Sequence record: NZ_CP086424.1 | Origin: a plasmid | Length of the DNA: 64,000 nt | Strand: one strand, 5' to 3' | Shown: piece by piece, positions 18,601-24,600 of the stretch | Position numbering within the stretch: position 1 is the stretch's first letter | How the letters are laid out: each line of letters begins with the position of its first letter | Made by a program: the position numbers

Positions 18601-21600
18601 AGGCCACACGCAAGGCGCGGCGTGACGCGGATCGCCGCCAGCACCTCAAGACATCAGCTCGGCCGGACAAGCCCGTTCCGCCGGATACGGATATTGCCGA
18701 CCCGCAGGCAGACAACTTGCCACCCGCCAAACCGTTCGACCAGATTGAGGAGTGGTAGCCGTGGACGAATATCCCATCATCGACCTGTCCCACCTGCTGC
18801 CGGCGGCCCAGGGCTTGGCCCGTCTTCCGGCGGACGAGCGCATCCAGCGCCTTCGCGCCGACCGCTGGATCGGCTATCCGCGCGCAGTCGAGGCGCTGAA
18901 CCGGCTGGAAGCCCTTTATGCGTGGCCAAACAAGCAACGCATGCCCAACCTGCTGCTGGTTGGCCCGACCAACAATGGCAAGTCGATGATCGTCGAGAAG
19001 TTCCGCCGCACCCACCCGGCCAGCTCCGACGCCGACCAGGAGCACATCCCGGTGTTGGTCGTGCAGATGCCGTCCGAGCCGTCCGTGATCCGCTTCTACG
19101 TCGCGCTGCTCGCCGCGATGGGCGCGCCGCTGCGCCCACGCCCACGGTTGCCGGAAATGGAGCAACTGGCTCTGGCACTGCTGCGCAAGGTCGGCGTGCG
19201 CATGCTGGTGATCGACGAGCTGCACAACGTGCTGGCCGGCAACAGCGTCAACCGCCGGGAATTCCTCAACCTGCTGCGCTTCCTCGGCAACGAACTGCGC
19301 ATCCCGTTGGTTGGGGTAGGCACGCGCGACGCCTACCTAGCCATCCGCTCCGATGACCAGTTGGAAAATCGCTTCGAGCCGATGATGCTGCCGGTATGGG
19401 AGGCCAACGACGATTGCTGCTCACTGCTGGCCAGCTTCGCCGCTTCGCTCCCGCTGCGCCGGCCTTCCCCAATTGCCACGCTGGACATGGCTCGCTACCT
19501 GCTCACACGCAGCGAGGGCACCATAGGGGAACTGGCGCACTTGCTGATGGCGGCGGCCATCGTCGCCGTGGAGAGCGGCGAGGAAGCGATCAACCATCGC
19601 ACACTCAGCATGGCCTGTCGACAACCTCTCGCGCAACCAAGACATCGCGGTCGGACTGCAAGTGATCTTGAAGCCACGGGCCCGTCCCACCCCGACATGG
19701 ACCTCGATGCCCGAACGGACGTTAGATTTCGAGTTCTAGGCGTTCTGCGATGAAGGTTGGATCCCAGCCGGGATTGAAAGTGTCGACGTGGGTGAATCCG
19801 AGCCGCTCGTATAGGCCACGCAGGTTCGGGTGGCAGTCGAGCCGCAGCTTGGCGCACCCCTGCGTTCGCGCGGCATGGCGGCAAGCCTCGATCAGCGCGG
19901 AGCTGACACCCCGGCCCGCATGTGTCCGTCGCACCGCGAGCTTGTGCAGATATGCGGCCTCCCCCTTGAGGGCGTCGGGCCAGAACTCGGGATCCTCGGC
20001 CGACAAGGTGCAACAGCCGACGATGCCGTCGCTGCAACTCGCGACTAGGAGCTCGGATCTCAGGACGAAGGTCTCCGCGAATGTCCGGTCGATCCGCGCG
20101 ACGTCCCAGGCGGGCGTTCCCTTGGCGGACATCCACGCCGCAGCGTCGTGCATCAGCCGCACAACCTCGTCGATATCACCCGAGCAGGCGACCCGAACGT
20201 TCGGAGGCTCCTCGCTGTCCATTCGCTCCCCTGGCGCGGTATGAACCGCCGCCTCATAGTGCAGTTTGATCCTGACGAGCCCAGCATGTCTGCGCCCACC
20301 TTCGCGGAACCTGACCAGGGTCCGCTAGCGGGCGGCCGGAAGGTGAATGCTAGGCATGATCTAACCCTCGGTCTCTGGCGTCGCGACTGCGAAATTTCGC
20401 GAGGGTTTCCGAGAAGGTGATTGCGCTTCGCAGATCTCCAGGCGCGTGGGTGCGGACGTAGTCAGCGCCATTGCCGATCGCGTGAAGTTCCGCCGCAAGG
20501 CTCGCTGGACCCAGATCCTTTACAGGAAGGCCAACGGTGGCGCCCAAGAAGGATTTCCGCGACACCGAGACCAATAGCGGAAGCCCCAACGCCGACTTCA
20601 GCTTTTGAAGGTTCGACAGCACGTGCAGCGATGTTTCCGGTGCGGGGCTCAAGAAAAATCCCATCCCCGGATCGAGGATGAGCCGGTCGGCAGCGACCCC
20701 GCTCCGTCGCAAGGCGGAAACCCGCGCCTCGAAGAACCGCACAATCTCGTCGAGCGCGTCTTCGGGTCGAAGGTGACCGGTGCGGGTGGCGATGCCATCC
20801 CGCTGCGCTGAGTGCATAACCACCAGCCTGCAGTCCGCCTCAGCAATATCGGGATAGAGCGCAGGGTCAGGAAATCCTTGGATATCGTTCAGGTAGCCCA
20901 CGCCGCGCTTGAGCGCATAGCGCTGGGTTTCCGGTTGGAAGCTGTCGATTGAAACACGGTGCATCTGATCGGACAGGGCGTCTAAGAGCGGCGCAATACG
21001 TCTGATCTCATCGGCCGGCGATACAGGCCTCGCGTCCGGATGGCTGGCGGCCGGTCCGACATCCACGACGTCTGATCCGACTCGCAGCATTTCGATCGCC
21101 GCGGTGACAGCGCCGGCGGGGTCTAGCCGCCGGCTCTCATCGAAGAAGGAGTCCTCGGTGAGATTCAGAATGCCGAACACCGTCACCATGGCGTCGGCCT
21201 CCGCAGCGACTTCCACGATGGGGATCGGGCGAGCAAAAAGGCAGCAATTATGAGCCCCATACCTACAAAGCCCCACGCATCAAGCTTTTGCCCATGAAGC
21301 AACCAGGCAATGGCTGTAATTATGACGACGCCGAGTCCCGACCAGACTGCATAAGCAACACCGACAGGGGCAATGCCGTTGCCAGGCGTTTGTTGGCATG
21401 TTGGCTGCGCTCGGTTTCAACCCGCACCGACAGGCCGCTGGCGATGTGGGTCGCGCGGATGGCCGAGTCTGTGGTGTTCACGTGCTGCCCTCCTGCGCCC
21501 GAGGCGCGGCAGGCCTGAAAGTGGATTTGCTTATCCAGAGCCTTGTCATTGACCTCAAACATCTGGCCGCTGAAGAACCAGTTTTTGCGTTTGTGCCCGG

Positions 21601-24600
21601 GTCTGAAGCGGCTTTGGCAGCTCCAGAGCATGGCTCCCTGCCAAGACAGCGCCAAGTGCTTGGCCCGGGCTTCATCATTGGCACTGAGTTGCAGCAAGAC
21701 CGACTTGAAGCAGGCGACGCCGGTTTTAGCGTTTGCCTGAGTCACCTCCAACAACTCGCAGCCTATGCCTTGCGCCTGACACTCCCGCTCTATGGTTTGC
21801 ACCGCCAGGGCCACAGCGCGGCAGCATTCAATCGGGCCGGTTCCGGCCGACAGTTGCAGTAGTATCATCAGCAGCACTCCCCGTTGGTTTTGAAGGTCAG
21901 CACAGGGCGCAGCCTGGCAACAACCTCAATCAAACCGGCATCGACCATATCGCCAATCACAGTCGCACATTTTTTGTAGGCCTGGGGCGCTTCGTCATAC
22001 AGCAGTGTCTTGTTACCGCAGATCACCCGGCTTCCCAGGGCGGTGAGGTAGAGATCTTCACGGCGGAACTTGTGCGCCAGGCGGCCCTGACACTCGCCGC
22101 GCTGCCATTTTCTCCCGGCACCATGAGCCAGGGAAAACAGGCTGATGTCGGCGGCATCGCCCGCAGCGGCGCAGGGTTTCACCAGGTAGCTGTAGTCGCC
22201 GCGGGATCCCGGGATCACCACATAACCCTTATCGCTCGGGGTGGCGCCTTTTCGGTGCAGCCAGCCTTGGGTTCCGTTTATGCACTTGGGGGATACCAGA
22301 TTGTGGTTCACATCCAACACCAAGCTGCCAGAGCTGTTGATCGCTTCCAGGAAGCGACAGGCTATCAGCTCGCGGTTCAACTCAGCCCAGCGTAGCGCCT
22401 CATCGTGTTTGGCCAGATAGTCGCTGAACTCGCTATCTTCCGGACTCAGGCCTTGGTGGCTGTGGCGGCGGATATGTTCCTGCAAAATTGCCTGCCCCAG
22501 GCCTCTGGAGCCGGAATGCACCAGCAGTTGCAGATAGCGGCTGTCCAGCCCCAGCTCTTGCAGCGCCGCCTGGTCATAGACAGTTTCTATCGCTTGAAAC
22601 TCGGCAAAATGGTTACCGGCACCTATGGTGCCCAGCGCCTGGTCAAAGCCTGTGATGGCTATGCCTTTTTCCCGCTTGCGCTCGGCAATTGTTTGCGCCC
22701 AGGTTTCATCCAGAGGCTGTTCTATCTGTTTGAACTTGTTTGCCATCTTATCCAGCTTGACCTTGGATAGCTTCAGCGAGCTCTGCCACAGTGACATGCC
22801 GCAGCCAATGTCGTTGCCGACCAAGGCAGGATAGATTCTGTTGACGGCAAAAAACGCCGCACCAATGGGATAGCCTCTGCCGGGGTGCAGATCCGGCATT
22901 CCTGCCACGTGCTGCATACAGGCCAATTCAGAGGTTTTAATCAGTTGTTGTATTGCCAGCCCTTCTACCCAGGTTTCTTTGGATGCAATCAGGCTGACGC
23001 TTTCAGTAAGTTTTTGGACGGATCTGCCCATAGACCAATTCCTTTAAACAGGATTTAAACGATAAACGTATTGGCAGGCCAGTTGACCGAAGCGATAGCT
23101 TTACCAGAAAGCTATGAAATCAGTGGATAGCTTTCTGCTATTTAGCGGACAAGACCTGCAAAGGAGGTTGATGTGTTTTGCATGATGTTTTCTCCTCTAC
23201 AGTGAATGAATGGTGAGCGATGCGGGCGCATGGTAATCAGTTTGCCACCATAAGGCAAATATAAATTCAATCACTTAGCTTTATTTGCCGCCGAACCCTA
23301 TGGCAAGTGCGTCAGCTTGGGATTGCGGCCGGGGCAGCCGACCGCAGAAAGAGGCTACTGTTTCAGGCCATGATTTAAAGTCATGATTTAAAGTCATGAT
23401 TTGAAACCACACCAAGAAGCCGAGATAGAACTTTCACTTGCCGGGTTAAGGCAGCGGTTGGCGGGGCTTGGCCTTGTCACTTTTGCTGTGTGCCAGTTCA
23501 AGCACTTGTTCAAAGTCCAGACCATTAATCTTTTGCCCTATCAGGCCGAAGTCCATCTGGCCGTTGCGATCCGAGTGGTTCAGCGCTGCCAATGGGGTGT
23601 CGAACTCGGCCAGTTGGATTGCCAACAAGGCCATGACAAATTCCTGCTTGTCATGGGAGTTCAGCTGCGCCATGAGTCTGATGACATCCTGTTGGGTCGA
23701 CTCTGCACTGCTGCCGTCGAAGACTATGGTGTTGGGGGTAGTGCTGCAGGCCATCAGGCCGGTCAAAACGATAGCAATTATTATATTCTTCATGAGCTAA
23801 CTTCCGTTTTTTCGGTGTTCTACTTCCGTGCTGGCTTGTGATCGCCCTGTGGCATTCTCTCGAAGCGCCGCTGGTCTGGGGTACAGTTCCGGCCAACAGC
23901 AGTGTCAAGGGCACAGGCTCGGCAGAAGCGAATAATAAATTAAACCGCGACTCTAACAGTTTGAGATCAAAATTTTTTGAGTCGAGTCAAACAATTGACA
24001 TATAAGGAAAAGGTTTGATTTTTGTGAGGTGTCCCTGTTGCAACAGCCTTGGCCGCCCCTCTTCCTTGAGTCAATCTTTACAAACAGGTTACAGAATACC
24101 TCACCCTAAATAGGGCGACAAGTCATAGTGATCATTTATCCAACTTACCCAGATTGCAATCTTCACAAAGTATTTGCATGTTATTAATATCCAGCGCTTT
24201 GTGCGGGTACTTGCTGCGGGGCAAAATATGGTCTACATGCAGCACTATATTGTGTTCGGCTTTAGTGCGATTGCACTCTACACATTTGTGTTCGTGAGTT
24301 TGCAGCACCTGATATCTGAGTGCCAGCCAGGCTCTGGATTGATAAAAGTTATCTATGGTTTTGGGCTCGAACTCGCTGAGCTGCTCCGGATGCTCAAAGG
24401 CGCGGTGGCCGAGTTCGGGGGAAAAGAAGCTGGCCTGAATATCGGCCTTGTCCTGATGCTTGCTGAGCCATTTCCAAATGCCGCGCAGGGCACCTTGCTC
24501 ACTCTTGTAACGCCGGGTTCTTATGCTGTCTCCAGTGCGAAAAGTGACTTGGATTTCCAGTTCCATGGGCTTTTCTCCTGATAACAGGCTGTTGGTGGCC

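Follow-up and report, generated by a model that had tools for sequence, protein, structure and literature searches.

A PrfH-coupled rtcB2 gene and a truncated prfH beside qnrA on an IncC plasmid, probably passenger DNA from Shewanella algae

The plasmid record NZ_CP086424.1 carries a gene for a PrfH-coupled RNA ligase of the RtcB family, rtcB2, which is followed by a shortened gene for release factor H that we call prfH′. Here we analyse a window of 64,000 nucleotides of this record, and all coordinates are positions in that window. We conclude that rtcB2-prfH′ is very probably passenger DNA of the mobile element ISCR1, taken up with the chromosomal neighbourhood of qnrA in Shewanella algae, and not a new system. 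Shown directly are the S. algae origin of the DNA, its colinearity with the native locus, both junctions to the nucleotide, how much of prfH is missing and from where, and the recurrence of the structure in independent assemblies.

The pair lies inside a 6.6-kb block of S. algae DNA (21370-29285) that is split by a defective copy of IS10. The block holds eight genes, one of them cut, in the order trmO-SBP-qnrA-orf91-HNH-orf115-rtcB-prfH′, where SBP is a binding-protein gene. It is colinear with positions 5067-11662 of an S. algae locus, L091 (loci used for comparison carry our own L numbers), at 98.7% identity. The colinearity falls into two matches, one on each side of IS10: window 29285 down to 27063 corresponds to L091 5067-7289, and window 25750 down to 21370 to L091 7281-11662, both at 98.7%. 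The same gene order, ending in a prfH of 211 codons, is found in two S. algae contigs (272 kb and 436 kb) and in a 13.5-kb contig from a public sequencing run. Past prfH the native locus continues with a Sel1-repeat gene, hipA and other chromosomal genes. Cluster listings show S. algae chromosomes of 4.7-5.0 Mb that encode a PrfH of 211 amino acids (aa) and an RtcB of 387 aa. We reached this source through a protein collection, by way of an RtcB with 98% identity; in the one-genome-per-species GTDB collection the best related locus has only 75% identity. The comparison identifies the locus from which this qnrA allele came. The features that are needed in what follows are these:

21370-29285, minus strand: captured S. 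algae chromosomal block, defined by colinearity with L091 and by the native gene order in three S. algae contigs; 6.6 kb plus the IS10 copy
21868-23031, minus strand: rtcB2, PrfH-coupled RtcB-family RNA ligase, intact, 387 aa
21320-21868, minus strand: prfH′, truncated release factor H, 182 aa from the ATG, made of native residues 1-166 and a 16-aa tail
23034-23258, minus strand: native upstream region of rtcB, with a promoter-like site, a mini-ORF (small open reading frame) and RNA segments A-D
25044-25700, minus strand: qnrA allele, the selected gene of the block, 514 bits against NF000071 QnrA
25751-27062, plus strand: IS10 copy, 1312 bp, with an IS4-family transposase (404 bits); its ends were read directly
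29286-31059, minus strand: ISCR1, with a transposase gene at 29518-31059 that matches NF052416, ISCR clade Ia
21183-21369, minus strand: qacEdelta1 remnant at the start of the second 3′-conserved segment (3′-CS2), the last 187 of 348 bp; its identity to the first segment (3′-CS1) stops at 21369
20350-21189, minus strand: sul1 of 3′-CS2, 641 bits against NF000294 Sul1, with the same gene calls in identical loci

Both edges of the block can be placed to the nucleotide. On the left, the S. algae homology ends at 29285 and position 29286 opens directly with GGGTATAGGAAGTATAAACC, an end of ISCR1 that we take to be the oriIS end. On the right, the homology ends at 21370, and position 21369 begins a stretch that runs downward in 100% identity with 3′-CS1 (31440-32483), so that 3′-CS2 starts at about nucleotide 162 of qacEdelta1. 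This bears out an earlier note on this DNA, made from the sequence alone, which had prfH cut where the segment joins the 3′-CS. The frame around the block consists of intI1, dfrA, arr, cmlA, blaOXA-10, aadA1, 3′-CS1 (qacEdelta1-sul1), ISCR1, the variable region and the partial 3′-CS2, with a GNAT gene (orf5) among the neighbours on the sul1 side. Outside the island the backbone is 100% identical to IncC plasmids. The architecture is that of a complex sul1-type class 1 integron with ISCR1 on an IncC plasmid. In such integrons qnrA is known downstream of ISCR1, with S. algae as its source (PMC3270319), and ISCR1 occurs with large stretches of the native surroundings of resistance genes (PMC7782503). 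The genes are not integron cassette cargo, as the earlier note had implied: they lie beyond 3′-CS1 and ISCR1 in a 6.6-kb multi-gene block (attC sites were not searched for).

The ligase gene is whole. Its product clears the curated cut-offs of NF007153 (543.5 bits against 407) and TIGR03073 ‘release_rtcB’ (519.3 bits against 271.8) with the full profile covered, in support of the earlier identification of an RtcB2-PrfH pair on a resistance island. The motifs LLVHSGSRGLG and SLAHGAGRKW can be read in the open reading frame (ORF), and GNDIGCG, GAGNHFAEF, HSGSRGLG, VNHN and AHGAGRK align with the same metal-binding and catalytic motifs of solved RtcB chains. In the Escherichia coli enzyme, H294 is the nucleophilic histidine of HGAGR (PMC9304027). 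The protein is equal in length to the chromosomal S. algae RtcB and 98% identical to it. Against 13 S. algae variants it has at most one unique residue, the R in AHKFRRED, where other genera have K. The two genes overlap in the same orientation, stop and start sharing TGATG at 21868, in line with the rule that prfH directly follows a PrfH-coupled rtcB with its start touching the stop (PMC1586002). The overlapping ORFs and their HSGSRGLG, HGAGR and GGQ motifs were read here just where the earlier note had placed them. By profile and motif, the plasmid RtcB is a member of the PrfH-coupled RtcB2 family, and ligation of 16S rRNA is its predicted activity. The target of RtcB2 is 16S rRNA cut between A1493 and G1494 by toxins of the colicin E3 type; PrfH frees the peptide from the stalled damaged ribosome and so makes the subunit accessible to RtcB2.

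The prfH′ gene, by contrast with its intact partner, has lost its 3′ end. It encodes 182 residues from the ATG (185 from an upstream GTG, 21320-21877), with the GGQ motif as SGAGGQHVN. Residues 1-166 are identical to those of the 211-aa S. algae PrfH. The loss had been put at about 35 C-terminal codons in the earlier note; measured against the native gene it is 45, residues 167-211 (LFQKLEALKQEQMNREEQQRWLQHWELQRGNPRRSFKGEKFIPLD). From 21369 the ORF does read through into qacEdelta1 and gain 16 unrelated residues, as that note had said, and these are out of frame with qacEdelta1 and followed by a stop. An in-frame PrfH-QacEdelta1 fusion was considered and is ruled out, since the tail is out of frame and ends after 16 codons.

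What has been lost can be read from the E. coli protein (PDB 7SA4), to which native S. algae PrfH aligns from end to end (E = 1.5e-50) and in which the cut corresponds to residue 160. By cryo-EM, the GGQ domain of E. coli PrfH spans residues 108-161 and the rRNA-recognition domain 2-98 and 180-204, with linker 2, a stretch of a long helix, at 162-179; H184 stacks on C1914 of 23S rRNA, which R181 also contacts (PMC9304027). PrfH′ keeps the GGQ domain and the N-terminal part of the rRNA-recognition domain. Missing are the linker-2 helix and, from the recognition domain, the C-terminal third (E. coli 180-204, including H184), a strand region that completes it; the 45 lost residues include the near-invariant R186, W187, H190, R195, G196, F202 and F207. 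The protein also has no equivalent of domain 1 of RF1/RF2, aligning to RF2 from residue ~120-130 onward. Against TIGR03072 it scores 208.6 bits (cut-off 166.65) over profile positions 1-162 of 200 only. Judged by its sequence, PrfH′ is a truncated derivative and not a full member of the release factor H family, and it would be inactive. Annotators should be warned that the 182-aa protein entered as ‘peptide chain release factor H’ for plasmids of Enterobacterales is a fusion product and truncated.

We propose that a complex class 1 integron received the 6.6 kb, which begin at trmO and end with codon 166 of prfH, in an ISCR1-associated event, and that the route may have been the one described by the rolling-circle model of ISCR1. 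In the model that Toleman, Bennett and Walsh are said to have put forward in 2006, rolling-circle transposition of ISCR1 overruns the end of the element and takes adjacent DNA with it, and the circle then reportedly enters a class 1 integron by homologous recombination in the 3′-CS. The right-hand break inside prfH would be one of the two illegitimate junctions of the block. Selection would have acted on qnrA, and rtcB-prfH′ would have come along by proximity, because it sits 1.3 kb downstream of that gene. Its persistence on the plasmid would likewise be owed to linkage with qnrA and to the short time since capture, not to selection for ribosome repair. If so, the island is a clean and datable case of a neighbourhood of eight genes and 6.6 kb dragged along by ISCR1-type capture.

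Some points weigh against this account. ISCR1-driven mobilisation has never been demonstrated experimentally, and the capture mechanism is a model (PMC7782503). Over-expressed RtcB2 protects without PrfH (PMC9223846), and RtcB2 repairs cleaved 30S and 70S particles in vitro. We infer the inactivity of PrfH residues 1-166 from conservation and structure; rtcB2, being intact and having its own leader, could retain some activity.

These points lead to the alternative that survives best, namely that the pair is functional cargo under selection. RtcB2, driven by its own leader, would repair 16S rRNA after cleavage by colicin E3, cloacin or CdiA, either without PrfH or with a PrfH supplied by the host, and would give an advantage in the gut. 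The rtcB2 ORF, its catalytic motifs, the promoter-like site and the leader (described below) are indeed all intact, the ligase alone is protective when over-expressed and ligates cleaved 30S and 70S in vitro as just noted, and the structure is common across Enterobacterales assemblies. However, all copies of the island are 99.6-100% identical over their full length, which means that the intact ORFs reflect recency and are silent on selection, and the qnrA1 and qnrA3 islands, which lack rtcB, have spread too. IncC plasmids are low in copy number, which also counts against the alternative. At natural expression both rtcB2 and prfH are required, and in a catalytically dead PrfH mutant, Q122E, rescue is abolished (PMC9304027). 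On these published results we judge the plasmid module to be mostly inert, and it is probably not protective against 16S-rRNA-cleaving toxins at native, low-copy expression.

We therefore think it unlikely that the pair is selected for its function, and a measurable protective role of the plasmid module seems doubtful to us. Much the same low credence goes to the stronger proposal that the block is a self-contained, stall- or damage-inducible repair unit made of promoter, mini-ORF/RNA leader and ligase, which works without PrfH or with that of the host. Were it true, IncC multidrug-resistance plasmids would be co-spreading tolerance to colicin E3, cloacin DF13 and CdiA-CT among the Enterobacterales; the published genetics makes such a co-spread of ribotoxin defence unlikely when expression is native.

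Turning to the junction itself, a false join at the repeated 3′-CS has to be weighed: the 3′-CS is duplicated in the window (1044 bp, 100% identity), and mis-assemblies classically arise at such repeats. The junction recurs, however, in many independent assemblies. The assembly collection has the exact RtcB in 67 blocks, in the same context at every place listed, and 21 contigs encode the 182-aa fusion protein, which is labelled Enterobacteriaceae or Gammaproteobacteria. Records of 132-222 kb cross the junction, and short-read contigs read 30-40 bp past it before they end in the repeat. The 21 kb around rtcB are 100% identical in L083 and L085 and differ by one base in L082 and L084. A second lineage (L088 and L089), 22 single-nucleotide polymorphisms apart and with another left flank, has the same junction: L088 reads 30 bp over it, and L089 ends exactly where the S. 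algae DNA ends (21370). The independent assemblies that share the junction rule out an artefact, whose probability we put close to zero, and the junction survives the doubt that the earlier note had raised about it.

We can dismiss in the same way, as having next to no chance of being correct, the idea that a form of 166 to 185 residues is a normal variant of the family from which nothing was lost: family lengths are bimodal (PMC12829566) and the truncated protein passes the TIGR03072 cut-off, but the bimodality comes from an extra C-terminal tail and not from a shorter core (PMC12829566), every full-length S. algae PrfH examined has 211 aa, 78 of 79 rtcB-adjacent PrfH genes in other genera encode 202-233 aa, and DNA homology to the native gene halts abruptly at the 3′-CS. 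The one outlier among the 79 has 118 aa, and no natural homologue in this set ends near residue 166 (the outlier was taken by length alone). The alignment to full-length homologues that the earlier note had called for thus upholds the C-terminal loss.

How rare is such a plasmid? No plasmid in PLSDB carries the rtcB-prfH stretch according to a megablast search, in which two plasmids match only the 360 bp upstream of rtcB, and the stretch has no match in complete E. coli genomes. RtcB2-like genes are present in 141 PLSDB records, but 117 of these are Ralstonia megaplasmids, and several records labelled ‘Escherichia’ or ‘Proteus’ are chromosome-sized. The E. coli type of rtcB2-prfH is found on about four true enterobacterial plasmids of 24-127 kb in PLSDB. 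Plasmid-borne rtcB2-prfH is rare, then, and precedented. The identical rtcB2-prfH′ structure is present in many newer public assemblies, and the pair is therefore unusual, as the earlier note had called it, only in a relative sense. In the open-access papers searched, rtcB is not mentioned together with qnrA.

The ligase gene brought its own upstream region with it. The 414 bp before rtcB are native, with few substitutions relative to S. algae chromosomes, and the block at 23034-23258 is 100% conserved among those chromosomes. It opens with a promoter-like site (-35 at 23258-23253, -10 at 23235-23230) that scores 8/12 and rests on conservation: a motif TTGCnn-N17-TAnnAT, then GCGCCCG, recurs across genera. 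A generic sigma-70 scan gave nothing on the minus strand. Then follows a mini-ORF of 13 codons (23183-23142, MQNTSTSFAGLVR) with a strong Shine-Dalgarno sequence. A similar mini-ORF, with the consensus MTxTSxSFAGL(I/V)R, precedes rtcB2 in 80 of 81 chromosomal loci of other genera; the leader was seen upstream of rtcB in L002-L081 and at L096 1380-1530. The conservation is at the level of RNA, since CCTTTGCAGGTCTT is nearly invariant, synonymous sites included, and since E. coli has the same nucleotide motif, CTCTTTGCAGACC, in a different reading frame of a 15-codon ORF.

The earlier note had suggested a test of whether rtcB is transcribed from a tandem-repeat region at 23369-23405. The repeat exists, with a somewhat smaller extent (23369-23402, 2.6 copies of 13 bp), just past the stop codon of orf115. 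S. algae strains have it natively, with differing numbers of units (one fewer in L092); some 130 nt separate it from the conserved promoter-like site and leader downstream. With a repeat that varies and a conserved promoter-like motif downstream, a promoter in the repeat is unsupported. As a separate observation, the qnrA3 plasmid has an 11-bp duplication near the site of the tandem repeat.

Four segments of the leader RNA could pair with one another:

23202-23192, minus strand: segment A, the Shine-Dalgarno region of the mini-ORF
23166-23153, minus strand: segment B, inside the mini-ORF
23080-23068, minus strand: segment C, ~45 nt before rtcB
23044-23034, minus strand: segment D, the ribosome-binding site of rtcB

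The predicted helices A:B, B:C and C:D are mutually exclusive, and C:D would cover the ribosome-binding site of rtcB. Across the compared leaders, 87-91% of alignment cells are paired in A:B, 97% in B:C and 87% in C:D; when the partners are slid by 1-3 columns as a control, 21-63% of cells pair. Helix B:C reads GCAGGTC:GACCTGC in the marine genera and GCAGAC:GTCTGC in E. coli, which amounts to two compensatory changes, and C:D contains one covarying pair (AU 7, UA 7, CG 2). The covariation sits mostly at that one C:D pair and in the comparison of E. coli with the marine genera, and most columns are invariant. A scan for hairpins with a T-run revealed no intrinsic terminator before rtcB in S. 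algae and none in 26 of 39 loci, while hits in the other 13 loci have no common position. Rfam has no family for the leader, and three papers on RtcB2-PrfH do not mention it (PMC1586002, PMC9223846, PMC9304027). A conserved mini-ORF and a four-segment leader before rtcB2-prfH in many Gammaproteobacteria may be of wider use, as a testable route to the sensing of ribosome damage and the switching-on of repair.

A parallel exists in Pseudomonas aeruginosa, where the operon PA5471.1-armZ(PA5471)-PA5470(prfH) likewise has a leader mini-ORF before an RtcB-like gene and prfH. The PA5471.1 peptide, of 13 residues, has Q3 and F4, unlike the rtcB2 mini-ORF (MQNTSTSFAGLVR). In two publications, the P. 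aeruginosa operon is described as induced by ribosome stalling via alternative RNA structures (PMC12057347, PMC13041342). The Pseudomonas model uses a terminator hairpin, whereas in the rtcB2 leader the 3′ helix would cover the ribosome-binding site of rtcB. The rtcB2 leader resembles that of PA5471.1 in its features; homology of the two leaders and switching by stalling are putative.

The closest characterised relative of the pair is RtcB2-PrfH of E. coli (ATCC 25922 / CFT073 type; PDB 7SA4). It is the same two-gene operon with overlapping stop and start, its RtcB belongs to the same NCBIfam equivalog, and upstream of it E. coli has a related leader in which the same RNA motifs recur. The plasmid copy differs from it in its S. 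algae origin and in a PrfH that is cut after the GGQ domain. E. coli K-12 has a remnant, rtcB2′/prfH′, of the same operon that was naturally crippled by an internal deletion of ~1 kb and that has left an expressed-looking ORF (PMC1586002, PMC9223846). The damage is of another kind: the deletion in K-12 took away the 3′ part of rtcB2 together with the 5′ part of prfH, whereas on the plasmid rtcB2 is whole and prfH has lost its 3′ end at a mobile-element junction.

Among mobile elements, the complex class 1 integrons with qnrA1 or qnrA3 (ISCR1-qnrA-3′-CS2) have the same architecture and the same donor species and a shorter stretch of S. algae DNA. In the qnrA3 plasmid pC39-334kb the qacEdelta1 breakpoint is identical to that of the window (21369/21370; L001 4000/4001; L095 ~2914), but the S. 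algae block of that plasmid, only 98.3% identical, ends 1.7 kb earlier, at window position 23082, 50 bp upstream of rtcB. In the qnrA1 island the S. algae block stops soon after qnrA and 3′-CS2 is joined 44 bp earlier in qacEdelta1. Thus rtcB-prfH′ is in the present island type only and not in the qnrA1 and qnrA3 islands compared. The same qacEdelta1 breakpoint combined with different donor ends suggests that one ISCR1/3′-CS unit has captured DNA more than once.

The qnrA allele of the block encodes a protein that is 99.1% identical to QnrA3, with two residues that differ, and no identical copy of it is in PLSDB. It is probably qnrA6, whose environment reportedly includes IS10 and ISCR1 (Jayol 2016 as cited in PMC7046756). 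An exact-protein look-up missed this QnrA, yet its DNA is 100% identical in public assemblies.

The IS10 copy lies between the binding-protein gene and qnrA (25742-27071), 50 bp upstream of the qnrA start, and is flanked by a 9-bp target duplication, AGCGCTGCC, which is the 9 bp common to both matches with L091. Compared with the usual IS10 end sequence, the terminal inverted repeat facing qnrA is presumably short by 17 bp, and owing to this deletion the copy is probably immobile. The outward promoter of IS10 would point into qnrA.

The left flank of the block varies between loci. In L088 and L089, 5′ of IS10, there are ISCR1, a GST gene, a gene for a class A beta-lactamase of 308 aa, an insertion sequence and an AraC-type gene, and then IS10; this flank looks like a blaPER module, which we offer as a candidate. 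In L084 and L087, IncC transfer genes (dsbC, traC-like) directly abut the S. algae binding-protein gene.

Finally, three small S. algae genes accompany qnrA on the minus strand (23446-24891): an ORF of 91 aa, a 144-aa HNH gene and the ORF of 115 aa. The 91-aa and 115-aa ORFs have no family match, and the 144-aa HNH endonuclease has weak similarity to IscB and to retron HNH domains.

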